DNA of 64,000 nucleotides. It comes from Takakia lepidozioides (Eukaryota; Plantae; Bryophyta). This document shows, one piece after another, positions 1-33,358 of the stretch. The stretch spans positions 35,526,001 through 35,590,000 of the forward strand of contig CM060733.1 of assembly GCA_030704615.1 (NCBI GenBank), in the 5' to 3' direction. Both the position numbers and the translations under genes were made by a program. Below the pieces are notes generated by a model, which had not been told where the DNA came from, did no database searches, and saw only the letters and a list, made by a program, of their open reading frames with translations. Position 1 is the first letter of the stretch, and every line of letters begins with the position of its first letter.

Positions 1-2249
1 CGATATTGTGAAGGAGTGGCATCTGAAACATTTGCGTGATTGCCCTTGGTATGTGGACCTTCCGCCCGGCTCGCTCGACCCATCCGAGTTTCAATTGAAG
101 CTGGATGCTGAATTCCGACGAAACCGGGCTCCGCTGCCTCCGTTGGGTGCAAAAGAGGCAAAAGCGCTTGCGAACTCCAGGAAAGCGGCAGAGCTTGCTC
201 AGACAGGAATTCAGGAGAAATTGCATGAGAAGAGTAAAGGTCAAAGGAAAAGGACAAGGAAACAGGTGACTGCAGTAACACCCAAAAAGAAGAAAACCAT
301 CGGGGCATGGAGGAGGCGCAGGAGGGGACCCAAGAGAGTGACTCCGACGCCGATTTTGTTCAAGGTCCTGCGACTGCTGTTGCTCCTACCCAGTCACCGG
401 TCGTCCGGGTTCCCAAGTCAGTTCGGAGTGGGACTGGCTCTGCCAAGAAGTTGGCATTTGAGGGCGAGCCTACACGGCGGTATTCGGCGGTGACGTTTAC
501 GCACAGGCCAAAGCTAGAACCTCCAACCATCATCCAATGCGTCAATGAGAGCTTCCTTGACGCTCTCGCTGCCAGGGCGAAGAAGGTGGCACACAACAAG
601 TCTCTGGCGGAGCAGAAGGGGAAAGCCAAGAAGAGGGCTGCCGGTACAGAGCCTAAAGACACCCCTGGTTTTGAAGCCATGATGGAATTCTTCACGGCTG
701 TGAGCACGAATTGCAAGAGCACTCGGGGGGGGTTGAGGTGGAGAGAGCTTGCGACATGATTCTCCTCGACATTCCAGATGGGGAGCTGCTGGAGGGCCTG
801 GATGGTGTGCCCACCTGGAACAGGTTTACTGAGGACTACTGGAAAGCCGGGTTTGGGCTGGCGGGGATGCTTCTGGATGACGGTGGATGTGTGGTTGTCC
901 TTGCCACGAGAGGGAAGACCACAGAGAATGCGGTGGCAAGGTGGACACCGAAAAGTGTCACCCCGGTCCTCCTCAGAAAATGGTTCTGCATCAGTACGCA
1001 GGGGTTGCGAACAGAGGGCCAAAGTGTAAGTTATCAATCTATTGCATTCACTTCATATTGTGGTGTATGTTAAGTAGACCCTGGAATTGATCCCTTCTTT
1101 GTTGGATGTGCAGACATTGGTGTTTGAGGCATATTGCTTTGTGAAGAGAGGGTCTACGTTCAAATTCCGCAACGACGGTCGTCTTGTTGATGCCGCTGTG
1201 GACCCTGTAACCTACGATGTCCTCTACAACTATGTGCCCCACTCTAGTATGCCGAAGGACACAAAGACAGGCAAACCGTGGCGGTACAGCCGGACCCGAA
1301 GCCCTGCTTTCATCCAAACCCTCATGGAGACGTGCTCGGATGTCCAAGGGCGGATTCTGGACCTCACATGCGGCACGGGTAAGCCTTCACGTCCTCAGTT
1401 TGTCCCCTGGCCCCATTGCAATTGCATGCCGCAAGCTATTAACCGCCCGCTTTGTTCCTCAGGTGCTTCAATGTGGGCAGGGACGTTGTCCGACAGGCAT
1501 GTGTTCGCCTTCGAGCCAGATACTGCCCTCCACAACTCGGAACTTGCAGCGGCTGAACGTCTGCCGAAAGAGGAAGAGGCATCCTCGGAGGATGAGGAAA
1601 AATCCGAGAAGGAGCAGGGGGAGGAAGTTGGGATCGAGGCCGAGGAGCCCCGGTTTACGAGTGAGTGGTGGCATTGTAAGTTGCCTCCAGATTTTGTGAG
1701 GCACCTCCCTCCGCTCTCTTATTTCATTGAAAACCCTTTCTGGTTGTGCTGGTATTGACATTCTTCAAGTGGATTTGTTCTTACTGTAGGATGCCAAGTA
1801 CTGCCGGAGGGACGTCTACACCGGAGTTCATGGGCAGGAGGAACGTGCCTTTTTTTGCCAGGGGAGATTTCATGCCTAGTCCAGAAAGGGAGTACATCCT
1901 GCCTACTTATGCTGCCCGGCTTGCTTCGGTGTCCATTAGGAGGTGTTCCGAACGTAGTCGTGTACAGCAGATTTTAGACGAGGCAAGCCTCAAGAAAATG
2001 AAGATGAGGGAGGAGGCAGCAGCTATTAGAGCCCGTCGGGCTCGTAGATTTGTGTTGGATTCTGCTGAGGAAAGTGGGGGAGAAGACGCAGAAGATTCCC
2101 AGGAGGTGAGGTGGACAGTCCCCCAAGGAGAGGACGGGATTTTTGAGAGGCATAGTGGAACTGATGCATCACAGAGCTCGGAGGATGAGGGGGATGAGGG
2201 GGATGAGGAAGAAGGTGGGGCAAGTTCCTCGGAGGGTGTAGGAGAGTAG
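1..2249 (+). CDS. 3' part of an intron-containing gene whose C-terminal region resembles a beta-class DNA amino-methyltransferase (N6_N4_Mtase fold); copy 1, 5' end outside the window
   Basis: Motif IV-like CDMILLDIPDG (~751-783). GT-AG introns at 1026-1113, 1379-1462 and ~1661-1789. Splicing gives PWRYSRTRSPAFIQTLMETCSDVQGRILDLTCGTGASMWAGTLSDRHVFAFEPD, matching the motif X / motif I (SAM-binding) / motif II order of beta-class MTases. Acidic tail to TAG at 2247-2249. Two 1-bp frameshifts (~309, ~730) are absent from the inverted copy. Confidence 0.7.
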
Positions 2250-2414
2250 TGCCCATTCCGGCTATGACAGTTAGAACACACTTGTATAGACGTGGCTTGC
2301 CACAAAATTTGCAATAAAATGTTGCATTTTAAGTCCACTGGTGCCACATTCCAACTTCACATGACCCTATTTCCGTGCCTCCTAACCCTATTTCCGTGGA
2401 CTCACAATGGTCTG

Positions 2415-2500
2415 CTCATGCTTTTTTTTTTTCCGCTCATGCTCATGCCGCTCATGCTCATGCCGCTCATGCTCATGCCGCTCATGAAATAGCAGCCCCC
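2415..2500 (+). repeat. Subterminal CCGCTCATGCTCATG repeats and terminus A
   Basis: Three 15-bp units plus a partial unit immediately inside the terminus. The copy at 26675-26731 has two fewer units. Confidence 0.8.
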
Positions 2501-4864
2501 TTAGAAAGGGGGGCACAAACAGTGTGAGTTGACGCACACTGTTTGGTGCTTCCAACTATGGGGTTTATTGACATGGCATTCTGGCTTGTGTAGCCCATTT
2601 GGACATCCTAAAACAAGCTGAGAGAGGGGCACAAACAATATGCGTTGACGCACACTATTTAATGCTTCCAACTACGGGTATTTTGAACTTGGCACACTGG
2701 CCTCGTGTGGCCCATTTAGACATGAAAAATAGCTAGAAAGGGGGGCACAAACAGTGTGCGTTGACGCACACTGTTTGGTGCTTCTAACTATGGGGTTTTT
2801 TGACATGGCATACTGGCCTTGTGTGGCCCATTTAGACATCAAAAATAGGCTGAGATGGGGGCACAAACAATGTACGTTGACGCACACTGTTTGGTGCTTC
2901 CAACTATGGGGTTTTTTGACATGGCATTCTGGCCCTGTGTGACCCATTTTGAAAACCAAAAACAGGCTAAGAGAGGGGCCGAAATAGTGTGCGTTGACGC
3001 ACACTGTTTGGTGCTTCCAACTATAGGGTTTTTTGACATGGCATACTGGCCTTGTGTGGCTTATTTAGGCATCAATAAACAAGCATAAAGGGGAGCAAAA
3101 AGAGTGTGCTTTGAAGCACACTGTTTGGTGCTCCCAATTAGGGGTTTTTTGAAATGGCATTCTGGCCCTGTGTGGCCCATTTTGAAATCCAAAAACAGGC
3201 TGAGAGAGGGGCACAAACAGTATGCGTTGACGCACACTGTTTGGTGCTTCCAACTATGGGGTTTTTTCACATGGCATACTGGCCCCGTGTGGCTCATTTA
3301 GACATCAATAAACAAGCATGAAGGGGAGCAAAAAGAGTGTGCTTTGAAGCACACTGTTTGGTGCTCCCAATTAGGGGTTTTTTGACATGGCATTCTGGCC
3401 CTGTGTGGCCGATTTTGAAAACCAAAAATAGGCTAAGAGAGGGGAAGAAATAGTGTGCGTTGAGGTACACTGTTTGGTGCTTCCAATTAGGAGTTTTTTG
3501 ACATGGCATTCTGGCCCTGTATGGCCCATTTTGAAATCCAAAAACAGACTGAGAGAGGGGCACTTACAGTATGCATTGACGCACACTGTTTTGTGCTTCC
3601 AACTATGGGTTTTTTTGACATGCCATACTGGCCCTGTGTGGCACATTTAGACATCAATAAACAAGCGTGAAGGGGAGAAAAAACAGTGTGCTTTGAAGCA
3701 CACCGTTTGATGCTCCCAATTAGGGGTTTTTTGACATGGCATTTTGGCCCTGTGTGGCCCATTTTGAAAACCAAAAACTGGCTGAGAGAGGGGCAGAAAC
3801 AGTGTGCATTGACGCACACTGTTTGGAGCATCCAACTATGGGGTTTTTTGACATGGCATACTGGCCCTGTGTGGCTCATTTAGACATCAATAAACAAGCA
3901 TGAAGGGGAGCAAAAACAGTGTGCTTTGAAGCACAATGTTTGGTGCTCCCAATTAGGGGTTTTTTGACATGGCATTTTGGCCATGTGTGGCCTATTTTGC
4001 AAACCAAAAATAGGCTTAAAGAGGGGCACAAACAGTGTGCATTGACGCACATTGTTTGGTGCTTCCAATTATGGGGTTTTTTGACATGGCATACTAGCCC
4101 TGTGTGACTCATCTAGACATCAATAAACAAGCATAAAGGGGAGCAAAAACCGTCTGCTTTGAAGCACATTGTTTGGTACTCCCAATTAGGGATTTTTTGA
4201 CATGGCATTTTGGCCCCGTGTGGCCCATTTTGAAATCAAGAAATAGGCTGAGAGATGGGCACAAACAGTGTGCGTTGACGCACAGTGTTTGGTGCTTCCA
4301 ACTACGGGTGTTTTGAACTTGGCACACTGGCCCTGTGTGGCCCATTTAGACATTAAAAAATAACTAGAAAGGGGGGCACGAACAATGTGCATTGACGCAC
4401 ACTGTTTGGTGCTTCCAACTGTGGGGTTTTTTTACATGGCTTTCATGCCTTGTGTGGCCCATTTGGACATCCTAAAACAGGCTGAGAGAGGGTCACAAAC
4501 AGTGTGCGTTGACGCACACTGTTTGGTGCTTCCAACTATGGGGTTTTTTTACATGACATACTAGCCCTATGTGGCCCATTTAGACATCTAAACAAGCATA
4601 ATGGGGAGCACAAAGAGTGTGCTTTGAAGCACACTGTTTGGTGCTTCCCATTTGGGGTTTTTTGACATGGCATACTGGCCCTGTGTGGCCCATTTGGACA
4701 TAAAAAAACAGGCTAAGAGAGGGGCACAATTTGTGCGCATTGCCGCTCACTCTTTGGTGCTTCCAACTACGAGTGTTTTGAACCTGCTACACTGGCCCTG
4801 TGTGGCACATTTAGACATCAAACATCGTCCATTTTTAAATCAAAAAACAGGCTGAGAGGGGGTG
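2501..4864. repeat. Tandem satellite, ~116-117 bp monomer, ~20 units, two subtypes often alternating (~233-bp higher order)
   Basis: Recurring CAAACAGTGTGCGTTGACGCACACTGTTTGGTGCTTCCAACTATGGGGTTTTTTGACATGGCA.. unit. Spurious ORFs recur at 233-bp spacing (3647/3880; 3453/3686/3919). Confidence 0.95.
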
Positions 4865-6370
4865 TGTAGTGTGAATGCAGGGGAGTGACATTACATTTTG
4901 TCTTACCGCTAAGACCCTGCATCACTACAACGGGAGTGCCCGTTGTACAACTGCAGGAGGGATATATCCCTGCATACAGGTAATTTCATAGGCATACTGT
5001 GCTTATGCTTTGCCAGGATAAAAATGGCTAAGTCATGACCATGCATATTTTCATCCGTAGGATGAACGTTTTCATCCCAGGCGTGTAACCTAGAAACGCG
5101 GGTTGAGGAAAACGAAGAGGAAGATGACGGGCAACTCTTAGCAGCTGCTGCGAGCAGTGGGGTTGGCAGGGCCGTCTGTTTTTGGGAGGTTGTACCTATG
5201 CTATGGGACTCTGCTTGGTTTAGAGAGCAGCATTAGGTGCTTCTGCTTGGTATTCTGTGTAAAGGGAAGCGGTGCCGCTTCTCTCATAGTGATGATCAAT
5301 TCCTGGAGTAGGAGCATGTAAGAAGAGCAGCGCACCACCGCTGTCGCCATTGCCTTGAAGAAAACAATTATGGGCAGATGAGCAAGCAAGGAAAACGGCC
5401 AGCTGCCGGAAGCACAAGGAAGTGAGTTGTGGGCACAATCAATGGAGGGGATGAGGCATGTGAAGTGCTGGCTGGATGGCAACTCAGGTTATCTGTAATC
5501 AAAGCTTATAGCTGCTTTTGTGTCTTCTTACTATAGGACCATGTCAATTCTTAGGGAAGAATTGCACGCATAGAAGGATAGAGTATTTAGTTGGCAAGCC
5601 ACAGGATGTTCCATAGGACGAAGAGGAGCCATCATGGCATGATAAATACTGGAATCAAGACAAGGAGAATAGGTTGAAGTGGCTGCTGACAGGCGATGGT
5701 GAGGTGCCATCTTGGCAGGCAGATCCACCGCTTCGCTGGAGGATAAAACAGATAAGTTCGTAGACTGTGGGCTTCGGTTTTTGGGAGTGGTGACTTAGAA
5801 ATCGTTTTGGTGTGGATTTAGGACTGGCTCTTGGTAGAGGAGAAGGAGGTAGAGATATGTGATGGAGGAAAAAGGTTTTGGAAATGGAATGGAGACTCTG
5901 GACTTCAAACCGGGATAGGGAAAGGATGGATGCACATGATGTTATAGTGTTAGTAGGAGAAATGAGTGGGGGGAGAGACTGCTTGTCACTGAATCAAAAT
6001 GGTCACTGTTTGTCTTCATTCTTGTTCTTTGTTTCAGTGTTATGAACCTGCACACAATGCTGCCGTGGGTATTGATACACTGGAACCAATGTAGACCTAG
6101 CTTGGCTGATTGAAAACACCAGTGAGGGTTAGATAGAACTGTTGAAAACAGAGAAAGGATAATGTGGATGGGGAAGCAACACCGACACTGATTTGGTTTT
6201 TTTTTTGGAACTAATTTCCAGCATGGTCTCAGGGTATGAACAACTGAGGTTCACAGTTGAAGGGAAAAGAGGGTTGTTGGGGTATTTGGTTGAAACCTGT
6301 AGAAAGGCTGAGAGCTGTTTGGGCAATGGCTTCTTTTGGAAAAAGGTAGTGTGAAGGGTTGGTCATTGGC

Positions 6371-6405
<35 letters not shown>

Positions 6406-7099
6406 ATGAATGGGATGGTTATGCCTTGTGTGACCGAGGATGATTTCAAGGCTGGGTGCACTGGATGCCTGGCTGAGTTGTGCATTGCATTGCATGGTAG
6501 ATATGCTGCTGTTGAAGAAGTGAGGAACCTGTAGACCTCAGATTAGAGAGAGAGAGAAAAGGATTTGGGAAGGGAGAGAGCTGCTTAGTATAAGGGGTTG
6601 ATGGGGGATGGCCAATTTGGGGAGATGAGATGAAGAAAACATGAACCCTGAAAGAGACCAGTGGCCCTGCAGTTCATGGCAGATCTGAGCTGCCTCCCTC
6701 TAAATCTGTGTCACCATTACAAAGGGGGCTTCCGACGTGTCACCGCTCAAGGGAGCTTCACATTAAGGGTCGTGTTCAGCGCTGTCATCGGGCTGGTTGC
6801 ATCACATAAAAGATCATGGCAGCACTGTTGGCGCTGTGATCATAGGGCAAGGCTGATGTATAAAAGTAGAACCAAGAGCAAGAACAATTCAAAACTCCCC
6901 ATCCATGTCTTCTCTTCCGCTGCGGCGTGGATGAGGATTGCATGAACTCTGATCACGAACGAACTAAGGGAAACCCACAGCCATGTGAAGATGGTTGGAT
7001 CACTAGAACGTTCCTTCCTTTTGCTTTGACTTCAACTAGGGAGGAGTACAGATTAGAATCACCCAGAAGGGGATTCACGCCCCTTCTTTTCACACTACA
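4865..7099. mobile_element. 2235-bp non-coding insertion with TG..CA termini: solo LTR or non-autonomous TGT-terminated element
   Basis: Begins TGTAGTGTGAA and ends TTCACACTACA (11-bp perfect IR, ~25-bp imperfect). 4-bp direct repeat GGTG at 4861-4864 and 7100-7103. The satellite monomer resumes in register on the other side. Confidence 0.8.
6373..6402. repeat. (GA)15 microsatellite
   Basis: Directly visible. Confidence 0.95.
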
Positions 7100-7512
7100 G
7101 GTGCACAAACAGTGTGCGTTGACGCACCTTGTTTGGTTCTTCCAACTTCGGGTGTTTTCAACTTGGCACACTGGCCTTGTGTGGCCCATTTAGACATCAA
7201 AAAACAACTGGAAAAGGGGGGCACAAAGAGTGTGCACTTACGCACATTGTTTGGTGCTTCCAACAACGGGTGTCTTGAACTTGGCACACTGGCCTTGTGT
7301 GGCACATTTAGACATCAAAAAACAATTAGAAAGGGCGCACAAAAAGTGTGCGTTGACGTACACTGTTTGTTGCTTTCAATTAGGGGTATTTTGAACATGG
7401 CATACTTGCCCTGTGTGGCCCATTTTGAAATCACAAGACGCACAGAGGGGGGCACAAACAGTATGCGTTGCCGCATACTGTTTTGTGCTTTCAACTGCGG
7501 GTGTTTTGAACA
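7100..7512. repeat. Continuation of the ~116-bp satellite (~3.5 more diverged units)
   Basis: Same monomer as 2501-4864; cut mid-monomer at ..GTGTTTTGAACA. Confidence 0.9.
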
Positions 7513-8698
7513 GAGGTTTACTATTTCATGAGCAGAAACCATGTGCCATGAGCCATGAGCCGCATGAGCGGTGAGCCGAAGTCTAAGACACGCGGATTTC
7601 ATGAGCGGACTCCTCCAAATTTGGAAATGCGGCAGATTAAACAAGTATTAAAATAATAGTTTTTTAGGGCACCTTGCCGTTTTTGGAAGTTCCACATCCT
7701 GTAATGCGGCGAAGATATGTCGTCAGTAACAAGATCGCTCATGGTTTTTTAGATCCGCGGTTTTACATGCCTTAACATTGGAATGAAGTTGACCCTTCTG
7801 CCGCGATTGAACCAATAGAGTCTGCAGTACTTCACAATTCTGTCATTTTCGGGTATTCGGCGGGAAAGATTTGCGACTCAACTGGGAAATGCGGTGCCGC
7901 ATTAGGGCTTGCACGTGCGAAATTTCTGGGGAGTTTGGTGTTGGCGACGGTCGGCTCCCTAAAGGCTGGGTGCGACTATCTTGCTATGACGAAGGTCGTA
8001 TCTACCAGTATCTACGACGTTACTTGGAAATGCGGCGCCGCATTTCCTTGCCGGGGGTCGAATGAGGAAAGCAAAGTTTGGGAGAGCAAAAAAATAGGAA
8101 CCCTCCAACAAACAAAAATACAAGCACGTAGAAACAGAAGTGAATGACATAGTATTATCTTAGTTCGAGCAAAACAGGTTATTGGTAGGCAAGACATAAG
8201 TCGGACCTTTCTGTGGCCAGAGTCAGAGCTACTTGCAGCAGTACAGTTCTACTACAACTGAAACTCCGAAAAGGATGGGCATACCATGGTTGGGGACCGC
8301 AAGCCAAGCTCATTGGTCCCCTGGATCCATATTCAGAAGAGTGTGCAGCTCTTGGGGGCTCAACCCTGGTGCATGTATGAAGTGATGAGTTGTGGAATTA
8401 CGCCGGAGTCTCTTTAGGTACACGTAGTACAGATGCTTGCAAGGGCTGTATGATGCCCCCTTGTTCGCCATGATCTGGAAGTCGGTGCAATTGCAGGTGG
8501 GTAATTCTGAAATGGTGATGGTGTACACCTCATTGCGAACAGCTGAGCCTGCCGTGGCCATCTGATACACACGCCCAAAGCCTGGTGGGGGCACTTCTGT
8601 CGAGGTGGAAACTCGAAGATGACATTGCCATCGACTTCGGGAGGCAGATACGTTACCTTCCTGACTGGAAATTTGGCATAGTCGAGAGCAGCCAGCCG
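7513..8698. mobile_element. Putative opposite arm (end B) of the same unclassified element family, truncated
   Basis: Starts GAGGTTTACTATTTCATGAGC, versus end A read inward GGGGGCTGCTATTTCATGAGC. Clustered CATGAGC subterminal motifs (7527-7606). Contains a GGCGCC-centred palindrome like the one in the MTase-gene intron repeats. Confidence 0.55.
8310..8698 (-). pseudogene. SWIM zinc-finger ORF fragment (possible transposase C-terminus)
   Basis: YTITISELPTCNCTDF..SPCKHLYYV fits the SWIM consensus CxCxnCxH. Its 5' part is replaced by gypsy RT sequence at 8699. No DDE core is visible. Confidence 0.65.
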
Positions 8699-9928
8699 GT
8701 ATTGGACACTGTGGCAGACCATGAGATGTACTCATTCATGGATGGCTTCAATGGTTATAATCCAGTGCAAGTGGCAGAAGAAGACCAGGGAAAGACAGCT
8801 TTCATCACAGACTGGGGTGCTTATGCATACAAAGTTATGCCCTTTGGACTTTGTAATGCACCAACAACCTTTCAGAGAGTGATAAGTGAATCTTTTCAGG
8901 AGTATCTGGATGATTTCATACAGATGTTCTTGGATGATTTCAGTGTGTACAGCTCTAAGAATGAGCACTTGCATAAATTGGAGTTATGTTTGGCCAGATG
9001 CAGGATGAGAGGTTTGGGCCTGAATCCAGAAAAGTGTACTTTCTGTGTGAACTCCGGGGTGCTTTTGGGACACATTGTGTGTAAGAGGGGACTTCTTGTG
9101 GATCCCAGAAAGACAGAGGCCATTAAAGCCTCTCCACCACCAGTAAATGTTAAGAGTTGAAGGAGATTCCTTGGACAAACCAGTTATTACAGAAGATTTG
9201 TCAGAAGGTATGCATAGATAGCAGCACCATTGAGCAAGCTTCTGAAGAAAGATGCAGTGTTTGCATGGACAGCTGAATGTCAACAGGCGTTTGAGGAACT
9301 TACATTGTCAGTAACAACTACACCGGTGCTGATTAACCCTCACTGGCATGTAGTATTTCATGTTCACTGTGATGCCTCAGGAGAAGCGTTGGGAGCAGTG
9401 TTAGCCCAAAATGTTACAGGAAATATAGATTCACCTGTGTACTATGCTAGCAGGTTGATGAACAGTGCTGAAAGGAACTAAAGCACAACTGAAAGAGAAG
9501 CACTGGCAATGATTTATGCAGTCAAGAAATTCAGGCATTACCTATTGGGAAGGAAGTTTATGTTTTATGTGGATCACCAAGCTCTGATATATCTGGTGAA
9601 CAAACCTTTGATAAGTGGAAGAATAGCAAGGTGGTTGATAATCTTGCACGAGTTTGAGTTCGAGGTTGTTTATAAGCCTGGACGTTTGCATCTTGTGGCA
9701 GATCACTTGTCACGCCTATCAACAGGAGAGCCAGCCATAGGAGTAGACGACCAATTACCTGATGCGAGTTTATTTGCAGTGGAGGTGCAGGGAAGTGCAG
9801 AAGACTGGTTAGATTGGCAGTGGCCAATCAGATACTACCTTACTCATGGTCAATGCCCACCTAGTTATGGGAAGGAGCAGAGGAAGAGAATTGCTATCAA
9901 GGCTTTACCTTATACTATGGTAGGGGGC
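8699..9928 (+). mobile_element. Older Ty3/gypsy copy, part 1 (RT-RNase H; 5'-truncated, nonsense codons)
   Basis: DGFNGYN, MPFGLCNAP, FLDDF, CDAS, DHQAL motifs. Collinear with the inner element's pol. Stops at 9158, 9207 and 9479. Interrupted at YTMVG by the nested insertion. Confidence 0.92.
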
Positions 9929-10855
9929 TGTCGCGCGGCTTTTACTCACCCATCCCTTCGCTATCCGAGGCGGAAACTCCAAGATAGAAGAGTTGGAAAT
10001 CTCTAAGTACTCAGCCCGCTCAGAACAATCAGTCATGACCTACAGCTAGTGTATCATGGGGGTGTTTCCTATTTGTTTTCCTTTCCGCATTCATGTTAGC
10101 TAGCTACCTTACTATTGATAATTGAGTATCAGTTTGCTCATCAACTCATCCATTCATTCCACAGCTTCACTCAGATCTCTCTACACAGTGTGATTGTATC
10201 GTATAAGTATCAGATTATGATTTATCAGGTATCAGGCCGAAGCCATTGTGTCTCTAATCTCCTCTACAATATCACTACAGCTTTGCATATAACAAGCATC
10301 TACTAATCATCTCTCCTCCCACCGTGCTCTCCATGCTGGCTTTCGTTCTTGCTCTCCGCCCGATCCCTTCTCCTCCATGACCAAGAATCCCCCCCCGGAG
10401 TGCTTCCAAGAATAATCCTCCTCATCTCAGTCCTTGCTTCTCCCTTTATCTTCCTCCCCGTGGCTCTAACCGTTTCCCTCACTAACCGTCGTCCGTGAAC
10501 TAACATGTTCTATTTGCAGGTGTTGTTCCCCACAGTCGTTCCCTGTCCTGCTCTCCGTTCCCTATGGTCGTGACAGCTGTGTCAAGCTGTGACTGGCTGT
10601 GTGAAACTGTGACGGGCTGTGTCGGCTGTGACGGCTGTGTCGACTGTGACGGGCTGTGTTGGCTGTGTCGGCTGTGATGGGCTGTGTTGGCTGTGTCGGC
10701 TGTGATGGGCTGTGTCGACTGTGACGACTGTGTCACCCCCCTCTACAGTGCGCTGCTGTCACCCCTAAAGCTCATGTTGGTCTCAGTCTGTGCAAAAATT
10801 AAGGGTACTCCTCAGATCCCGTAAAAATGTCTAAGTCCCTGGCAGTCCTCTAACA
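9929..10855 (-). repeat. 3' LTR (927 bp)
   Basis: Direct repeat of 22282-23247, preceded on the minus strand by the PPT. Confidence 0.97.
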
Positions 10856-10858
10856 TTA

Positions 10859-10872
10859 CCCCTTCCCCTCTC
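10859..10872 (-). other. Polypurine tract GAGAGGGGAAGGGG
   Basis: Purine run 3 nt upstream of the 3' LTR on the minus strand. Confidence 0.9.
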
Positions 10873-10893
10873 AAAAAGCCGTGTCCTCACGGT

Positions 10894-13137
10894 TTACTGT
10901 TTGGGATTAGCAAACCTTTGTGAGTGAGCACCCTTCTGACGTTGAGAGTCTCGTGAAGGACTTTGTGTGCGAGCCCGAGGTCTGCCACTGGTTGACGGAG
11001 ATGTTTGAACACTACCCGGATAAGTGATGCCTTCTGGAGGCTGATATCGAGGTAACCTTTCAGGCATAGGAGACCCCCGTCGCTTCTTCTCTGCCATCTG
11101 AATTGCATAGTCTTCTCCCATGTCAAAAGAATCCGCTGAAGAAACAGTTGTATCAGAATCCTCATCGCCTCTCAGGTGTTTTAATTGTCGAACTTTTTGT
11201 GGAATCCTCTGGGGCATACAATGTTGTCCTACCATGTCTGGAAGTTTATATTTTAAAACTTGGTATAAACGCTGAACTGCAAAATTGGTGAAGACACTGA
11301 ACTCCTTGTCTGTCCAGGTGAGTGGGGTACCAATGACTTGTGACTTGTTCAAGTATTTCCATGCCACATGTGCCTTATAGAAAATATCATCAATGCCGAA
11401 TTTCTGTGTTGACAAATTGTTCCAGGCTGCCTGAAACCATGAACGAATTTGAGAATCGTTTTGCATCATAACTTTTGCCTCATATAGGTACATATGAGGT
11501 GGCACTGAAGGTAAGACCCAATGATCCCCACTGGAATAACTCAGAAAGCGCGCTTGCATCTTTTGCTGCTCAATGTGATAACGTACCAGAAAACAAGCAG
11601 CGTAGTATAATCCACATCCCATGACAATACTCGCTACCTCCTTGGTCTTGGTATAAATGAATCCATGTACAACTTGGAAGGCAATTAATTCTCTCAACAT
11701 TGTACCTGCCTCATGCCAGTATTGTGCAAAGTGATGATTTTCAATTGGTCGATTGTTCGGAAGAACTTTAGTCCTCATTGCCATTGGCAGCCAAATGCGC
11801 ATGATTTGGTAGTAATGTGCAAATGACTGCGGAGGACTAAATTCTTTCCAAGCCAAATCCAACATGATGGGAATTTGGTTGAAGGGCAGAATCATAGCCC
11901 TACTGTACTCCCTTGCAGCTGGAGTTTTAGGTGGGTTAAAAGCAGCATTGCCCCATACCTCAGACTGTGGTGGCTGTGGTGTGGCTGTAGTAACAACAGG
12001 GTCAGCTACTGGCACAGTGACTTGTTGTGGTGTTGGTGGCAGTTGCTCTTGTATCATTGGCATCTCCTGCACCTCTTGTGAAGATGACTGGAAAGCTAAA
12101 GTTCTTGCTTTTAAATAAGAAGCCATTAGCTGTTCCTCAGGTACACAGACTCTTTTGTCGATATTTGAAGTGAGGTCCTCCACTTGAGTCTGCAGGCCGT
12201 CTACATCCTCCTGTAACTCCGCTATTCTACTATAGACATTGTCTATAGTAGTTGTAGCAATGTTCTGCACTTGCAGCCTGAGTTCATTCATCTCGTTTTG
12301 GGTGAGCTTTCGTGGTGCTTTGCCCTCCACTGGCCCTTGTGCTAACCAGACCTGCATAAGGTGGTTATCCACCAAGTTGCTTGTGGTTCCTCTGAGAGTG
12401 TGCTCTTCTCTTTGTTTGTACACATCTAACTGCTGTTGTAAAGCCTCCATGCGCTTCGCATGAGGTTCAACCAAATTCGCATAGGCAGCAGCCAGATTAT
12501 TGGCTTCCTTCCAAGCTTTATTAGCCACAGAGAGTTCATTTCTATTGGCCATGATTGTTTGTTGCAACTCCAAGATGTGCCTCTCTTGGTCAGCTTCAAC
12601 CTGCCTGTATTGCTTGAAAGTATCCTCATTGCGACAGATTGTATTCTTCGTATCGACGATGAGTTTCACTTGCTCAACATTCTCTGCCTCTGCCTTCATA
12701 CATCTTTCCGCTTGACTGTTTATTTCTATTGTAGATTGGTCCAGCATAGTTGTGAGTGTAGCACATTGAATGGCCATTCTGTCATGCACTGTCTGCAACT
12801 CCGTATGTAGTGCATTCACTTGTTGCAACTTGCTTTCATGCTTCACCTGCATTTGGTATAGCTGTTGCTTATGTGCTTCATGCAATTGGTCTTGCGTGAG
12901 ACCTGCCTCAATCAATTGTTCCTTGGCCAATTGCAAAGCTGCTTCTGTATTCTCCAAGTCTTGCTGCATCTTGAGAGTGACCTTCTCATCGACCTTGTTT
13001 GCACACTCAGTGGCTAGTCGAGCCTCAAACTCCTTCATGAGTTCCTCTCTCAAGGCTGTCAATTGGGTAATTGGAACATGGGATTTGACATAAGTCCCCA
13101 ACAAATTAAGTGTCCTGCCTATGGAACTCATAAGCAT
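10894..13137 (-). CDS. C-terminal part of the retrotransposon extra ORF (long coiled coil plus unknown globular region), 747 aa
   Basis: E/Q/L-rich heptad-like N-half. Homologous pieces at ~26635-26676 and 36955-37855. Same frame as pol. Confidence 0.8.
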   Translation of the reverse strand: MLMSSIGRTLNLLGTYVKSHVPITQLTALREELMKEFEARLATECANKVDEKVTLKMQQDLENTEAALQLAKEQLIEAGLTQDQLHEAHKQQLYQMQVKHESKLQQVNALHTELQTVHDRMAIQCATLTTMLDQSTIEINSQAERCMKAEAENVEQVKLIVDTKNTICRNEDTFKQYRQVEADQERHILELQQTIMANRNELSVANKAWKEANNLAAAYANLVEPHAKRMEALQQQLDVYKQREEHTLRGTTSNLVDNHLMQVWLAQGPVEGKAPRKLTQNEMNELRLQVQNIATTTIDNVYSRIAELQEDVDGLQTQVEDLTSNIDKRVCVPEEQLMASYLKARTLAFQSSSQEVQEMPMIQEQLPPTPQQVTVPVADPVVTTATPQPPQSEVWGNAAFNPPKTPAAREYSRAMILPFNQIPIMLDLAWKEFSPPQSFAHYYQIMRIWLPMAMRTKVLPNNRPIENHHFAQYWHEAGTMLRELIAFQVVHGFIYTKTKEVASIVMGCGLYYAACFLVRYHIEQQKMQARFLSYSSGDHWVLPSVPPHMYLYEAKVMMQNDSQIRSWFQAAWNNLSTQKFGIDDIFYKAHVAWKYLNKSQVIGTPLTWTDKEFSVFTNFAVQRLYQVLKYKLPDMVGQHCMPQRIPQKVRQLKHLRGDEDSDTTVSSADSFDMGEDYAIQMAEKKRRGSPMPERLPRYQPPEGITYPGSVQTSPSTSGRPRARTQSPSRDSQRQKGAHSQRFANPKQ

Positions 13138-13590
13138 TGCCTGTTGAGGGTCATCATGGTGAGCTTGCTACTGTTCTCCTTCTCCCTGATCCTCAACAGT
13201 GTGATGTCTCACGAACCACTCAGGCCATTGTCCCACCAGATTTTCTTCCTAAACCACTTCATCCATCACCGGTGCTGCAGTGTTTTGACATTCTACCTGT
13301 GGTACCTCCGGCACAGGTGTGTGTATTATATGTATCCCAGTATTTCCCGTGGGCAACTGTTGCACCTCTGGAATCTCCGTCTCCTTGACCAGACCAGAAT
13401 ATTCATAGAAAATGTCTCCCTTCTCAATTTCTGCCACTATCTGTTCTGTAGTTGGAATATCTAACCCTTCTTTTTCCAAATCAATTATTTCTGGTTGAGC
13501 TGCATGGACAACTTGTAACCTTGTGACAAGCCGATCAGCTGGCTGTGATGGTTGTGATACTGAAGTAACTTCCTCCTCCCTCTCTGAAGG

Positions 13591-21200: not shown

Positions 21201-21668
21201 GTTTTCATCCTCCAAGTTCTGCCCTTGGGTTTCTTCTTCACTCATGTAACTCAACTGCAATGGTGTTGGAGAGTCTGAACTCTCCGTTGGCTCTGCCACA
21301 TCTTCTCCTCCTTCTTCACCTTCCGCTTCAGAAACTGGAGTTCCTGCTTTTGGTGTTCCATGCCAACTCTTATCAAAGATTTCTGTCAAATCTTTTATCC
21401 AGGGATGTACCTCAGATCTTTCACCTCGTGATTGATCTTCTTCTCGTACCAATTCCCTTAATCTTTCTCGCAAAGAAACAGAAGGAGTGTCATCCAACTC
21501 TAGTTCTTCTGGTATGGGTGATGTACTCTTTGATCTTAATGGCGTGAGAGGTCCAGATGATTCCCCTATGTCTATTCCTCTCTCCCAAAGATATGGATAA
21601 TTAGCTTTCAGATAGCTTTCTCTTTTTGCTGAATATCTCTGGCGTCTAGCTTCTCTTTCATCACTCAT
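18225..21668 (-). CDS. Gag-protease, 1147 aa
   Basis: Retrotransposon capsid-like PPFPIYSGKGDPDVH..LFPCSL..ASEWY. Zinc knuckles CAKCQNEGHTTTEC, CTICKMDNHSTENC and degenerate CYYCNQPGHHKAAY. Protease LIDGGYGVN..LLLGSPWL. Confidence 0.93.
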   Translation of the reverse strand: MSDEREARRQRYSAKRESYLKANYPYLWERGIDIGESSGPLTPLRSKSTSPIPEELELDDTPSVSLRERLRELVREEDQSRGERSEVHPWIKDLTEIFDKSWHGTPKAGTPVSEAEGEEGGEDVAEPTESSDSPTPLQLSYMSEEETQGQNLEDENREKKLEEEEYEEVDPTAEVETTTRTSQPVGPGSSGALGSQANEGVGSGGSGGLPGSGSGGTGSVESSATEAGNTVNIVGPEAGSAQGPPLGGRSTTKTTGPEGPAPARVPAPVSGQKVGPQMALQPTRAKPPFPIYSGKGDPDVHISQFEHMCIVNNENGEDAKMRLFPCSLIKKASEWYARFPDNHFLTWNGLNTAFRNRFRTSKTEDEVYGSLQQLKQKKHETVEEYMEKMELMMKKLAAVPAPGLQKTWFVSGLRPELQKKVDMLPHNTVEEAFETANRIEQLGMLRREKRDDEDSEDESDEEEEQELKRKSKRKEKLKRDNYEKRLEEILKKYATEAATHWRKGVWCAKCQNEGHTTTECHMKEKHCTICKMDNHSTENCYYNRRTVAREPRQVRVHQVQPQPRRNNDQDHYGRSGGYNNGMEGRGNSRGNYQGNSRGNYQGNPRGNYQPGNQDYRNNPRVDQGRGPNGEELCYYCNQPGHHKAAYSFWIRHQNEMRAPVNEGPVVAAHMVRPCVVPEVSTMIVTRSKAKLIPPVVEEEDDNEGGSDMPEDDEAWREEKELHKEVADTIREMQKSIDIPVADSSDSDGEEEVREKERKKEDADMKSNEETLAEVICQTKAEITIGQLLAVAPYCRHKLYQAINRIAQETGNTDLNSKVTSYNVKPEGRETVMDFDDSMPVIQLKIGSTELTDVLIDGGYGVNIMTDQLRKKLGLSNMKPAPFTVTMADQRSVQPLGLIRGVKIQIQKMIFMITVTVLKMDEVMEAYSLLLGSPWLKQARVFHDWNSQLLTVHNGIHEIQITTKKSSRLPATRRPRGVREYDWREGLDEEQEATLFAAHPEWEQVAEMRLESLSCLRGICCGVVTATPTEEETSSYPSHFYEEREGEMEILEEPATVSLQDEVVTGWTITADEQVREVNVGTKEEPRMVKVGADLEPKFFEEAKSLFIKYRDVFAWSYEDLKGIPPEVCQHKIELEPGSVPIKQARYK

Positions 21669-21693
21669 GTCCCATGTCTTTCATTTCTTTTTT

Positions 21694-23247: not shown

Positions 23248-23252
23248 GGGGC

Positions 23253-26200: not shown

Positions 26201-26676
26201 AAGAAGTTACTTCGGTATCATAGCAATCATAGCTAGTTGAACCGATTGTCTCAGGGGTACCTCAAGTAGTACATGCTGCTCCACCACAACCTGTTGCTTT
26301 GGAAAAAGAAGGGTTAGACATTCCCACTACAGAGCAAGTAGTGGCAAAAATTGAGAAGGGTGACCTTCTCTATGAAAACTCAGGTTTGGTCAGGGAATCA
26401 AGGATACCAGAGGTGCAGAGTCTGTCCAAGGAAATCCCTACTGTGCAGATAATACCCACACTTGTGACGGAGGTACCAGGGGTAGAACATGAGGACACTG
26501 CAGCACTTGTGGAGGATGAGGTGGAGCAGGAAGAGAATCTGGTGGGGCAATGGCCTGAATGGTTCGTGAAGCATCACACTGTGGAGGATCAGGGAGAATA
26601 GCAGCAAGTTCACCATGATGACCCCCAGCAGGCCATGCTTATGAGTTCCATAAGCAGGACACTCAATTTGTTGGGG
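23253..26676 (+). mobile_element. Older Ty3/gypsy copy, part 2 (integrase plus extra ORF), degenerate and 3'-truncated
   Basis: Resumes at KMYKLGP straight after the TSD. Collinear with the inner element up to MLMSSISRTLNLLG. Several TAG stops and frameshifts. Cut by terminus A at ~26675. Confidence 0.92.
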
Positions 26677-26895
26677 GGGCTGCTATTTCATGAGCGGCAT
26701 GAGCATGAGCGGAAAAAAAAAAAGCATGAGCAGACCATTGTGAGTCCACGGAAATAGGGTTAGGAGGCACGGAAATAGGGTCATGTGAAGTTGGAATGTG
26801 GCACCAGTGGACTTAAAATGCAACATTTTATTGCAAATTTTGTGGCAAGCCACGTCTATACAAGTGTGTTCTAACTGTCATAGCCGGAATGGGCA

Positions 26896-29800
26896 CTACT
26901 CTCCTACACCCTCCGAGGAACTTGCCCCACCTTCTTCCTCATCCCCCTCATCCCCCTCATCCTCCGAGCTCTGTGATGCATCAGTTCCACTATGCCTCTC
27001 AAAAATCCCGTCCTCTCCTTGGGGGACTGTCCACCTCACCTCCTGGGAATCTTCTGCGTCTTCTCCCCCACTTTCCTCAGCAGAATCCAACACAAATCTA
27101 CGAGCCCGACGGGCTCTAATAGCTGCTGCCTCCTCCCTCATCTTCATTTTCTTGAGGCTTGCCTCGTCTAAAATCTGCTGTACACGACTACGTTCGGAAC
27201 ACCTCCTAATGGACACCGAAGCAAGCCGGGCAGCATAAGTAGGCAGGATGTACTCCCTTTCTGGACTAGGCATGAAATCTCCCCTGGCAAAAAAAGGCAC
27301 GTTCCTCCTGCCCATGAACTCCGGTGTAGACGTCCCTCCGGCAGTACTTGGCATCCTACAGTAAGAACAAATCCACTTGAAGAATGTCAATACCAGCACA
27401 ACCAGAAAGGGTTTCAATGAAATAAGAGAGCGGAGGGAGGTGCCTCACAAAATCTGGAGGCAACTTACAATGCCACCACTCACTCGTAAACCGGGGGCTC
27501 CTCGGCCTCGATCCCAACTTCCTCCCCCTGCTCCTTCTCGGATTTTCCTCATCCTCCGAGGATGCCTCTTCCTCTTTCGGCAGACGTTCAGCCGCTGCAA
27601 GTTCCGAGTTGTGGAGGGCAGTACCTGGCTCGAAGGCGAACACATGCCTGTCGGACAACGTCCCTGCCCACATTGAAGCACCTGAGGAACAAAGCGGGCG
27701 GTTAATAGCTTGCGGCATGCAATTGCAATGGGGCCAGGGGACAAACTGAGGACGTGAAGGCTTACCCGTGCCGCATGTGAGGTCCAGAATCCGCCCTTGG
27801 ACATCCGAGCACGTCTCCATGAGGGTTTGGATGAAAGCAGGGCTTCGGGTCCGGCTGTACCGCCACGGTTTGCCTGTCTTTGTGTCCTTCGGCATACTAG
27901 AGTGGGGCACATAGTTGTAGAGGACATCGTAGGTTACAGGGTCCACAGCGGCATCAACAAGACGACCGTCGTTGCGGAATTTGAACGTAGACCCTCTCTT
28001 CACAAAGCAATATGCCTCAAACACCAATGTCTGCACATCCAACAAAGAAGGGATCAATTCCAGGGTCTACTTAACATACACCACAATATGAAGTGAATGC
28101 AATAGATTGATAACTTACACTTTGGCCCTCTGTTCGCAACCCCTGCGTACTGATGCAGAACCATTTTCTGAGGAGGACCGGGGTGACACTTTTCGGTGTC
28201 CACCTTGCCACCGCATTCTCTGTGGTCTTCCCTCTCGTGGCAAGGACAACCACACATCCACCGTCATCCAGAAGCATCCCCGCCAGCCCAAACCCGGCTT
28301 TCCAGTAGTCCTCAGTAAACCTGTTCCAGGTGGGCACACCATCCAGGCCCTCCAGCAGCTCCCCATCTGGAATGTCGAGGAGAATCATGTCGCAAGCTCT
28401 CTCCACCTCAACCCCCCCCCGAGTGCTCTTGCAATTCGTGCTCACAGCCGTGAAGAATTCCATCATGGCTTCAAAACCAGGGGTGTCTTTAGGCTCTGTA
28501 CCGGCAGCCCTCTTCTTGGCTTTCCCCTTCTGCTCCGCCAGAGATTGTTGTGTGCCACCTTCTTCGCCCTGGCAGCGAGAGCGTCAAGGAAGCTCTCATT
28601 GACGCATTGGATGATGGTTGGAGGTTCTAGCTTTGGCCTGTGCGTAAACGTCACCGCCGAATACCGCCGTGTAGGCTCGCCCTCAAATGCCAACTTCTTG
28701 GCAGAGCCAGTCCCACTCCGAACTGACTTGGGAACCCGGACGACCGGTGACTGGGTAGGAGCAACAGCAGTCGCAGGACCTTGAACAAAATCGGCGTCGG
28801 AGTCACTCTCTTGGGTCCCCTCCTGCGCCTCCTCCGATGCCCCGATGGTTTTCTTCTTTTTGGGTGTTACTGCAGTCACCTGTTTCCTTGTCCTTTTCCT
28901 TTGACCTTTACTCTTCTCATGCAATTTCTCCTGAATTCCTGTCTGAGCAAGCTCTGCCGCTTTCCTGGAGTTCGCAAGCGCTTTTGCCTCTTTTGCACCC
29001 AACGGAGGCAGCGGAGCCCGGTTTCGTCGGAATTCAGCATCCAGCTTCAATTGAAACTCGGATGGGTCGAGCGAGCCGGGCGGAAGGTCCACATACCAAG
29101 GGCAATCACGCAAATGTTCCAGATGCCACTCCTTCACAATATCGTCAGTGTACATGGAGTCAGCCCCGGGGTTCCTCCATGCCAGGAAGAATGGTGGCTC
29201 GAAAGACAGATGACCTTTCTCCAAAAGCGAGAACTTACAGTACCTGCATTCATGAAAAAACCCAATGAGGTCCGAAAATGGCTAAGTCCCTGAACGGCAA
29301 TAGGGCCTACAACTGGAATATGGCGCCGAATTTCCACTTCAGGGCCACCCAGTCTAGGGACTTAGCCCGAAAATGGCTAAGTCCCTGGACGGCAATAGGG
29401 CCTGGAACTGGAAAACGGCGCCGAATTTCCACTTCCGGGCCAGCCACCCTAGGGACTTAGACCAAAAATGGCTAAGTCCCTGGACGGCAATAGGGCCTAG
29501 AACTGGAAAACGGCGCCGAATTTCCAGTTCCGGGCCAGCCACCCTAGGGACTTAGACCGAAAATGGCTAAGTCCCTGGACGGCAATAGGGCCTGGAACTG
29601 GAATATGGCGCCGAATTTCCACTTCAGGGCCAGCCAGTCTAGGGACTTAGCCCGAAAATGGCTAAGTCCCTGGACGGCAATAGGGCCTAGAACTGGAAAA
29701 CGGCGCCGAATTTCCAGTTCCGGGCCAGCCACCCTAGGGACTTAGACCGAAAATGGCTAAGTCCCTGGACGGCAATAGGGCTGGAACTGGAATATGGCGC

Positions 29801-32613
29801 CGAATTTCCACTTCAGGGCCAGCCAGTCTAGGGACTTAGCCCGAAAATGGCTTAAGTCCCTGGACGGCAATAGGGCTAGAACTGGAAAACGGCGCCGAAA
29901 TTTCCAGTTCCGGGCCAGCCACACTAGGGACTTAGCCCGGAAAATGGCTAAGTCCCTGAACGGCAATAGGGCCTGGAACTGGAAAATGGCGCCGAATTTC
30001 CAGTTCCGGGCCAGCCAGTCTAGGGACTTTGCCATTTTCGGAGCCCTGACTGGAAATCGGCGCCATTTTCCCTAACACCACTTAGGCCTCTAACATCCTG
30101 AAATGCCAGGACTTGAAGAAAGGCAGCGCGTATGTACCTGTACGAAGGCGCATTGCTGCTTTGTCCGCGTTCGGCTGGTCGGTGAACTCGTGGCTCCGGC
30201 GAGCATCTGCTATCGTCCCGAAAGAATAGGTTGGTTTTTAGAGCAGAAAGTACCTCGTCACATAGTCACGTAGGCTCTCTGCTGCAGGAGATATCTCCAT
30301 CTTGAACTGATGTGCTTGTGTGTGTCCAGCTGCTCTTGCGCATTAGTCGTCACCTGTGGAGATTGTCCATCAGATCGCTTTCCTCAAAAAATACAATGAA
30401 TCCACCCCCTACTGAGTAGAAGCCCCAAACGAAGCCGTGGGGAAGGTACCTGAACCACCATGTCATGCGGTTCATCCACATGTCGAATGTGGGTCAGAGA
30501 GTTTGTCCGGTTTGGGGAAGCTCCACATGTCCCTGGTACTTTGGGAACCATTCCAGATTGGAGCCACCGGGTCTGTTCAACCACCCAGCATATTCGTAAG
30601 AGCCAAAACACCACAAAAAGGAGTTGTTGCCACCACAATTTGGTTAAGAATGTATCACCGTTCTGTTGCATCCACACAGGATGTGGCTAGACGATGGAGC
30701 TTCTCCAATGTCATCGTGGGCTTCAGAGCGCGAGAGTGTGCTTTCCCACCTCCACCGAAAGTCGGCACCAAGGGCGGGATAAGCTATGGCCACGTGGTAT
30801 TACCATCCGCTGACTGTATTATGCGGGCCTCACCTCCGCAGCTTTGACATACGATTCGAGTTCCGGGAGGGTTGATTCTTCTCCTCTGACTCCATGTAGA
30901 ACCTCGCGCATGTGCCAAATCCTGCTGTATTTTCGTCTGTCGAAAAGGCGCACATAAGATTAGAGATCCTGCTCAACACAATTCTTCTATTGGGGGAGGA
31001 GAGACAATTAGCTCAACAAAACTGCAGGAGGCTTTACCCGAATTATGTAGTCCACCATGGCGTCGACGCTCAGCCTATACCAGGTTTGTCTGCTTTGCCT
31101 CCGACTTGGCAGGAGGTCGCGCACTGAGGGAATGGCCCAACTCTTGCACCCCCTGCTTCCCGACATCCTCACTCGGAAGAGCATAGGGACAAGTTGGTGG
31201 CAATGAAGGCATCTCAGTCACCCTGCAAGTGCACTTCCATCAAAACAATTACTGAAATGGGAATTTTCATCATTAGAGGAGGATTCGCAAATGAAATGAC
31301 TTCCAAATTCAAAGTTCCAAAATCGAGGGGGTTGTAGCTTACGAGTTGATGTCGGCCATTGCAGCTTTGAGAAGACTGCGATCTTTGGGCCCAGCCACAT
31401 TCAGCACAACACAATCGACGGCGAAATGCAAATCGAGATCGTTGGGGTGGGCTTGGGCAATGTGCTCCATACATGCCAGGAGGCAGGCGATGATTGACGT
31501 CCCACACGTAGAACATCTTACCGACATGTGTGGGAAAAGAGGATCACTAGCCAATCGATCTCTCGAAATCCTCATTTCGCGTTTGCCAATGGGGACCCCA
31601 TTGGTCCACCTCATCGGAAGAGTGTGGGCACGGAGCTCCGTGGTCGTTCTCAATGGGAAAGTAAAAGGCGGCAGACCCCATCGATAATCATCCGAAAGAG
31701 GAATTTCAGCTTGTCGTATAGCCTGGGAGGGCAGGTTCACCACTGCAAATGACACCAAGCGGCAAAGGGGAATTCGAAGCTTGGCCGGGGTACACCATGC
31801 CCAACAGGCACCCTGCCACTGTTATGTGGGTTGCCTCCAACATCTTGGCAGCGGCCAACTTCATATCCGCCTCAGACATGACGTCTGCTGCAGAGGGGTT
31901 TTCCGGCAGCCCACCAGGACCGCCAATCCAGCCTGTATGCTCCGGGTTTGGGGCCTGGGGATGTCCGGGAGAATGTCATCCTGGTCAGAAAGCTCCCTGT
32001 CGTCCTCCTCAACAGGGTCAGCCACCTGCGAAACCACCTCCAGCACTCTCGTCGTCTCTTACTGCCCTCTCCCTGGCTTCACCTCGAACTTGCACAATCG
32101 GTGCTCTTTCAGGTGTTCTTTCCTCTCCTCCACTCTCCACCGTATGGGTAATTGCGGGGGCTGCTCTTGCCCGCGATGGTCTAACCGGTGTGCTACTGCC
32201 TCTCTGTGGTGTCTTGTAGGGATCCACCGTCTCTGTGTGTCCCTCGCTTACATTGCATCTGTCATTTGGGCACCCCTGGCCTCTTCAGCTGCCTTTTTGT
32301 CTTTCCTCCTGCTAGCATTCTGTCTCGTCTGTTCTTTTGCCCTCTCTTTTGCCCTCTCACGGGCTTTCTGTTTCTTACTAGGGCTAGCAGCAGGGGAGCC
32401 CTCCAGGACGACCACCTTTGATTGAGGCGAACTGACACCCTCGCGCGCACTGCTCACTCCCCCCTCCGCAGCCCGTGACTGCTCTCTCGCCGGGGATTGC
32501 ATGTGCTTAGCTTTCTTCTTTTTCTTTGCGTGGGCGGGCCCTACTGCATGTGCATGAACAACCTCCATTGCCGGATCTGCTGTCCTCATGTCCTCACGCC
32601 CTTCACCTGCCAT
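26896..32613 (-). pseudogene. Multi-exon gene: basic/disordered N-terminus, ParB/Srx-like region, linker, DNA amino-MTase-like domain, acidic tail; frameshifted as assembled
   Basis: Candidate ATG at 32613 (MAGEGRED..KKKKKAK). Across frameshifts, 31340-31680 reads AAFYFPIENDHG..QWGPHWQTRNEDFE..DPLF..KMFYVWDVNHRL..MEHIAQAHPNDLDLHFAVDCVVLNV..AAMADIN, then a GTAAGC donor. Exon YCKFSLLEKG.. starts at ~29243. MTase motifs as in copy 1. The middle exons are only approximately resolved. Confidence 0.55.
29271..30072. repeat. 95-bp tandem array (~8 units, two subtypes) of imperfect palindromes inside an intron
   Basis: AAAATGGCTAAGTCCCT recurs at 29275, 29370, 29465, 29560, 29655, 29750, ~29844 and ~29941. 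It lies between a minus-strand donor (~30137) and acceptor (~29244). Confidence 0.92.
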
Positions 32614-32858
32614 GCCGCCTGCACCAACCTCCCCAATGCCTACTCTCGTAATCTCGTTGCAAAGTCCTCCCGTCCACCAACAAAAGGATTTAAGTTTGCC
32701 CTCTCGCCCCAAGTTGGGCGATTCAAACATGCGATGAGTTGGAGCTGTCGATGATACCACCAGCGTTGCGGGCTCGTCGTCACTCTGTGATTGACAAAAA
32801 TCGTGTGAACACCAACAGCGGTGCAAAAGCAGCAGCGCAACCACCATAGCAGCAATCA

Positions 32859-33358
32859 NNNNNNNNNNNNNNNNNNNNNNNNNNNNNNNNNNNNNNNNNN
32901 NNNNNNNNNNNNNNNNNNNNNNNNNNNNNNNNNNNNNNNNNNNNNNNNNNNNNNNNNNNNNNNNNNNNNNNNNNNNNNNNNNNNNNNNNNNNNNNNNNNN
33001 NNNNNNNNNNNNNNNNNNNNNNNNNNNNNNNNNNNNNNNNNNNNNNNNNNNNNNNNNNNNNNNNNNNNNNNNNNNNNNNNNNNNNNNNNNNNNNNNNNNN
33101 NNNNNNNNNNNNNNNNNNNNNNNNNNNNNNNNNNNNNNNNNNNNNNNNNNNNNNNNNNNNNNNNNNNNNNNNNNNNNNNNNNNNNNNNNNNNNNNNNNNN
33201 NNNNNNNNNNNNNNNNNNNNNNNNNNNNNNNNNNNNNNNNNNNNNNNNNNNNNNNNNNNNNNNNNNNNNNNNNNNNNNNNNNNNNNNNNNNNNNNNNNNN
33301 NNNNNNNNNNNNNNNNNNNNNNNNNNNNNNNNNNNNNNNNNNNNNNNNNNNNNNNNNN
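32859..33358. other. Assembly gap (500 N)
   Basis: A run of exactly 500 N; the round size suggests a scaffolding join of unknown true length. Confidence 0.99.

Follow-up and report, generated by a model that had tools for sequence, protein, structure and literature searches.

A palindrome and an intron array as candidate binding sites in a putative transposon family of Takakia lepidozioides

A perfect 22-bp palindrome near one end of a putative DNA transposon of Takakia lepidozioides, and the related core of a tandem array in an intron of a ParB/methyltransferase (MTase)-like gene, might be element-specific binding sites for a protein that the element itself makes, most likely its ParB-like/methylase-like accessory product. 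This reading is given a probability of about 40%. The motif is a real, family-wide feature and a fair candidate for a cis site of a kind that has already been proposed. Papers on algae propose that ParB-like transposon proteins bind their own elements, and the accessible text of these papers reports no test. With a defined candidate site, an array that is present throughout the family and spliced probable transcripts in two studies, the idea is directly testable here. If true, it would represent a second, unrelated self-recognition system beside VANC, and possibly a sequence-specific tool to lift silencing in plants.

The features of the window, i.e. the whole 64-kb stretch of DNA that was analysed, are listed in Table 1. 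Public contigs used for comparison include those of X1, which may be the source sample, and of X5, which is another study. X8 and X9 are guessed to be RNA; no listed run is recorded as RNA.

Table 1. Features of the two arms, the palindromes and the array (window coordinates)
Feature	Position	Strand	Evidence or detail
3' part of ParB/MTase-like gene, copy 1	1..2249	+	DIPD 768-779; SAM-binding end ~1357-1520, intron-split
Copy 1 of the MTase-side element end; GGGG comes first when read inward; CATGAG present eight times	2380..2500	-	
Lower-copy piece between the two ends	2501..7512	.	116-bp satellite 2501-4862, 7091-7512
SWIM-side element end; begins GAGG; five CATGAG repeats	7513..7608	+	80% like inverted MTase-side end, 64 columns, E 6e-7
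Half-site	7623..7633	+	
Second half-site, 8 nt, absent from the earlier list	7703..7710	+	
Degenerate palindrome copy, 18/22 matching, centre GGTGCC	7885..7906	.	sequence comparison
Perfect 22-bp palindrome	8026..8047	.	palindrome scan and simulations
3' piece of SWIM zinc-finger gene, likely transposase end	8310..8698	-	PF04434, E 7e-4, 19.5 bits against a cut-off of 19.6
Copy 2 of end and gene, inverted, indel-rich, running into N gap	26672..32860	-	GxxR-position word at 31487-31516
GT-AG intron containing the array	29244..30137	-	joint 29246 to 30144 in X8 contig, depth 32.5
Eight imperfect 95-bp hairpins with GGCGCC at the centre, and ninth core at 30052	29272..30072 (units 29272-30033)	.	

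The palindrome and the element ends

The palindrome, claimed in an earlier note on this DNA, is present as described and is the longest in the window. None of 100 order-3 Markov simulations of 64 kb contained a palindrome of 22 bp or more (the simulated maximum was 20 bp, in 4 of 100). Its core is GCG-N4-CGC, with three CpG, and it is situated 513 bp inward of the SWIM-side end and 263 bp beyond the stop of the SWIM open reading frame. Two degenerate versions had been listed with it: the one at 7885 stands as a copy with 18 of 22 letters matching, but the one near 7623 is merely a half-site. Palindrome, copy and the half-sites at 7623 and 7703 all fall 110-535 bp inside the transposon-like SWIM-side end. 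The motif is also found in pairs: at least two X1 contigs (12 of 86 rows), each single and short, carry the palindrome twice, separated by 31 or 35 letters of differing spacer sequence. One of these spacers opens with a 15-nt word that in the window is confined to both MTase-side subterminal regions (0 of 100 shuffles).

In prokaryote genomes there was no match to the full palindrome and four matches to a 20-nt version. Twenty metagenome loci that fit a 19-nt pattern were taken as chance, as their flanks have no similarity to the window, and an Rfam scan of 2200-8800 gave a single match, far under its threshold. The hairpin of a Helitron 3' end is found about a dozen bases before a terminal CTRR. 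This origin of the palindrome was rejected: on the plus side 43 nt contain no CTRR, the first on the minus side is at 17 nt, and high contig depth continues on both sides.

What are the stretches that begin at 7513 and at 2500? A contig joins position 2499 to other DNA, and a contig of X10, which carries a second organism label, ceases to align at 7513; both stretches are read as mobile element ends. Terminal inverted repeats and short subterminal repeats, the latter a feature of Mutator-like elements (PMC5225508), are present, in that the ends are 80% alike and carry CATGAG; the pairing of the ends is inferred. Both gene copies terminate at the same end (2500 and 26672) and then continue into different flanks. 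Summed contig depth is 411-644k in X1 and 183-493 in X5 over the MTase gene, 243-481k and 175-273 over the SWIM arm, and 11-43k and 18-77 over the piece between the arms, in a survey of 4 of 11 listed runs in which depth is not equal to copy number. The arms are likely to represent opposite ends of a single family of high-copy cut-and-paste transposons.

The earlier note went further and had the palindrome link the SWIM arm to the ParB/MTase gene. As a physical link, this is not borne out by the window: the SWIM piece is cut at 8699, its end and that of the gene copy with the array point in one direction, and no element with both ends is present in the window, so that the SWIM-MTase link is one that we infer. 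Mutator-like elements are flanked by target site duplications of 8-10 bp; here the three outer flanks of the ends differ. No contig spanning both arms was found. At 8699 the SWIM piece is interrupted by a Gypsy fragment, which is itself split by a younger Gypsy. Mutator-like elements encode a DDE transposase with a SWIM domain; here a putative SWIM part is present, the core being absent from the window, and protein searches with the SWIM piece returned no homologs. SWIM is also found in Zisupton transposases. At about 8591 an X5 contig departs from the window, a sign that an internal part of the SWIM gene may have been lost from this copy.

The methylase-like gene is present twice, in inverted orientation, at 1-2249 and 26896-32860. 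Over the 2.5 kb that both copies share there are only two substitutions, six single-base indels and one 30-bp repeat difference, hence a recent local duplicate or an assembly double. The segments 1-2500 and 26672-29144, inverted, near-identical and 24 kb apart, also share letters that are private to this window. Where the window departs from public contigs between 30100 and 32000, indels and transversions are frequent, whereas over 1-10000 transitions abound; the former is possibly low-quality assembly beside the N gap.

The intron array

The array was said in the earlier note to carry one 21-mer in every unit and again near 30052, but the exact 21-mer is found in three of the eight units (29410, 29505 and 29695); the remaining five differ by one or two letters, and the ninth core, at 30052, has five ungapped differences. 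What is constant is GGCGCC, which is intact in all nine cores (the eight units and 30059) while adjacent letters vary. Array and flanks are comparable in summed contig depth: in X1 it is 90k-569k for the array and 56k-511k for the flanks, and in X5 the corresponding values are 52-741 and 162-538. Among ten joints listed from four runs, the sole one that crosses the whole array is that of an X8 contig, which skips 29246-30144, nearly coincident with the GT-AG intron; in X9 another segment, 30318-30453, is skipped. Public contigs thus place the array throughout the family, and a probable RNA contig passes over it as an intron. The lack of cover by X8 and X9 on the array and on the SWIM-side subterminal region was given no weight. 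All palindrome and array copies found are in non-coding DNA, either near an end or in an intron. This placement, in a non-coding terminal region and in a tandem array within an intron, matches that of VANC motifs.

How closely is the array core related to the palindrome? The two align at 19 of 22 columns with a local score of 31. None of 100 simulated windows reached this score, and of 200 palindromes with shuffled arms that were run against the real window one did (a chance of about 1 in 100). Such scores are rare in simulations and shuffles, yet BLAST of palindrome against core gives E 0.68, and the likeness is therefore judged to be probably real but modest. The two sequences also differ at letters that a protein would read, ACG/ATG..CGA in the array core and GCG..CGC in the palindrome. 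In the window the motif was not found in the gene's other introns or at the MTase-side end of that copy. The array also shares 19 of 20 letters (29464-29483) with a Gypsy LTR end (10823-10842), a match equalled in 3 of 100 simulations, which indicates that such likenesses can be incidental. Derivation of the array from a solo LTR was rejected, given these simulations and the family-wide presence of the array. A search of viral contigs with the array 21-mer gave no match, and a weak viral locus had no likeness at the DNA level.

The array and palindromes might instead be neutral repeat DNA, a hairpin unit expanded by slippage within an intron, with palindromes that are internal duplications or chance look-alikes and are not read by any protein. 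The modest likeness just described is in keeping with this, as are the equally good word in an unrelated LTR end, the other introns that are devoid of the motif, and the fact that whole 95-bp units fold back on themselves. But neutral repeats would not readily account for an array that is family-wide, for a palindrome that recurs in two contigs with unrelated spacers, or for a GGCGCC that is kept in nine of nine cores while its neighbouring letters vary. Neutrality is the strongest of the rival explanations, and still a doubtful one.

The accessory gene and candidate readers of the sites

The ParB-like and methylase-like parts appear to form one gene, for which probable RNA contigs from two studies show splicing. 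Judged by its sequence, the C-terminal SAM-binding motif of a beta-class N4C/N6A methyltransferase (PF01555) is retained. PF01555 was assigned in 22 of 30 atlas matches (score 0.91), and with our own profile of 25 bacterial beta-class methylases the spliced reading ranked first of 2057 targets, 500 shuffles included, with E 0.017; the alignment covers the C-terminal 45 residues, i.e. the SAM-binding end only. Pfam, PDB, PHROGs and phage searches, run on unspliced frames, missed the methylase domain, and a protein homolog search with the MTase exon gave no matches. The catalytic word of beta-class enzymes is (D/S)PP(Y/F/W), e.g. DPPY or SPPY. At the corresponding position, placed by eye and outside the profile alignment, the gene reads DIPD, with no aromatic residue, and a 329-nt X5 contig (725-1052, depth 162) reads the same, with no differences from the window.

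The ParB identity is weaker than that of the methylase. At the GxxR position the reading is YVWDGN(H) in contigs from three runs (G-N-H in X5, G-N in X8 and X9), and the window copy reads DVNH, with V for G, followed by R. This would fit the GxxR word that is a feature of ParB proteins (PMC12409273), and it is the sole support for that identity. An N-terminal ParB domain was not matched in Pfam, PDB, PHROGs, a search of 1.8 billion proteins, the atlas or two ParB profiles of our own, the queried copy being frameshifted. No helix-turn-helix, ENxxR word, CTP-binding feature or ParA was found here, and a single-sequence fold prediction (pLDDT 32) was too low for use.

How might such a protein act? 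According to the preferred reading, a dimer of the accessory protein would read the two-fold sites, both those of the intron and those close to the end, and would bind them instead of methylating them. Binding could shield the ends and the accessory gene from CpG silencing by the host, in the way that VANC acts for VANDAL, and the bound protein would thereby protect the element, or it may regulate it. In the 797 bp behind the SWIM-side end (7513-8309) the observed/expected ratio of CpG is 0.98, which is higher than in all 156 intervals of 800 bp (median 0.43); with the motifs masked it is 0.90, and in the internal regions of Gypsy elements it is 0.18-0.39. This CpG retention is a hint of protection from silencing, although the high value may instead stem from youth or from a CpG-rich end.

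The reader of the sites could also be the SWIM transposase, with the palindromes as subterminal sites that help to pair or activate the ends. Four sites fall no more than 535 bp from an end, short subterminal repeats are a known feature of Mutator-like elements (PMC5225508), one Mutator transposase reportedly activates copies of its own element (10.64898/2026.08.24.746577), and one contig sets palindromes beside the MTase-side subterminal word. Yet the CATGAG repeats at both ends are more obvious transposase sites, the array is some 2.6 kb further in, within an intron that belongs to the other gene, and the transposase core is absent from the window. The transposase is an unlikely reader.

Far less probable is that GGCGCC is the substrate of an active, element-encoded N4-cytosine/N6-adenine methyltransferase that marks the element as self. 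The earlier note had offered the motif as a candidate parS-like or target site. The retained SAM-binding end and the spliced gene would suit this function, and an active beta-class 4mC enzyme is found in Marchantia (10.1101/2021.02.12.428880). But DIPD at the catalytic position, identical in the X5 contig, makes methylase activity doubtful and a methylation target unlikely; in addition, our own profile aligned with the C-terminal 45 residues only, and a 6-bp target has no need of symmetrical 8-bp flanks.

Least probable of all is a host transcription factor site (E2F-like) amplified by the transposon, as MITEs amplified E2F sites in Brassica (PMC5950925): one TTTSSCGS match (7860-7867) adjoins the 7885 copy, but this word occurs seven times in the window, five of them outside the element, and TTSSCGSSAA, the E2F word given in PMC5950925, fits neither the palindromes nor the array and has one site in the window, at 53184-53193.

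Comparable systems and the neighbouring satellite

Genes of comparable type have been described in algal transposons. In the red alga Bostrychia, inverted repeats in tandem arrays accompany a ParB-like gene in Plavaka elements (EnSpm/CACTA; genes PAG2 and PAG3). Self-binding is the authors' proposal, made with reference to VANDAL, and they identified ParB from an HHpred match with E 0.29 (10.1101/2025.02.11.637652). Plavaka resembles the putative Takakia family in being an abundant DNA transposon with a ParB-like accessory gene and inverted-repeat arrays, and its ParB call is likewise weak. It differs, as far as described in the accessible text, in that its ParB forms a fusion with a 2OG oxygenase, the methylase is encoded separately and the arrays adjoin the gene. 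Here, ParB-like and methylase-like parts are apparently in one gene, the array is in an intron with similar sites near the other end, the ends begin with GAGG or GGGG, and a SWIM gene is present. In Sola1-1_Ec32 of Ectocarpus, an accessory gene fuses a ParB-like to an N4C/N6A methyltransferase domain, and its product is proposed to bind and modify its own element (PMC12477816). This is a brown alga, however; the available portion of its description has no palindrome or array, and the Takakia catalytic word looks eroded.

The VANC motifs of Arabidopsis VANDAL elements are found in introns and terminal non-coding regions, in tandem repeats, and both VANC binding and demethylation have been demonstrated (PMC5735166). 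The Takakia family has intron and terminal motifs in tandem repeats as well, and its host element may likewise be Mu-like. But VANC motifs are 8-9 nt long, neither 'palindrom' nor 'inverted' appears in PMC5735166, and for Takakia binding is a prediction. ParB with parS, and the ParB-like BisD of ICEclc, provide a further parallel, i.e. two-fold symmetric sites in a mobile element that encodes a ParB-like protein with a GxxR-like word (PMC12409273). The parS site, as given there, is 16 bp with the consensus TGTTCCACGTGGAACN; the Takakia site is 22 bp and, though palindromic, differs from that consensus when compared by eye. A literature search, with most subscription journals outside its coverage, found no land-plant case of such a gene or site.

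Is the motif specific to this family? The 116-bp satellite in the lower-copy piece between the ends has at least 24 units, each with an inverted repeat of about 30 bp and a GCG-N4-CGC centre that resembles the palindrome at 8026, and a look-alike palindrome is present at 5263-5284. The whole window has 14 occurrences of GCG-N4-CGC, where 2.2 would be expected. Eleven of the occurrences are between 2642 and 8041, although eight of the eleven are repeats of a single satellite unit. At 7464 the unit agrees with the 7885 copy in 13 of 14 central letters, and a shuffled satellite arm yields this centre in 0.12% of cases, by a test chosen after the fact. Since GCG-N4-CGC recurs in a lower-copy satellite, the motif may not be family-specific; the pattern would equally fit sister repeats whose sites are related.

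Sister repeats would be expected by an extended form of the binding-site reading. In it, the accessory protein is a bacterial-type ParB clamp with a dead methylase that serves self-recognition; it would load at its own palindromes, spread and shield the element from CpG silencing, while sister repeats such as the 116-bp satellite would have their own GCG-N4-CGC variants, sites and readers having co-diverged. So complete a scheme is quite unlikely.

The satellite flanks a lower-copy stretch of 2.2 kb (4863-7090) with several short palindromes. This stretch is covered by contigs of X8 (guessed RNA) at a summed depth of up to 1363, and three frames tested gave no Pfam match. By its GT-AG introns, its Gypsy elements and the genes named below, the window is recognisably eukaryotic and likely of land-plant origin. 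A full Gypsy is present on the minus strand at 9930-23249, with LTRs 95-98% alike, a target duplication of 5 bp, gag and pol in long frames, and one additional frame of 757 aa (10894-13167) that has no Pfam match. A Transferase-family gene is present at 40651-42397, a LINE-type zf-RVT piece at 44111-44734 and a SAC3/GANP exon at 57852-58193.
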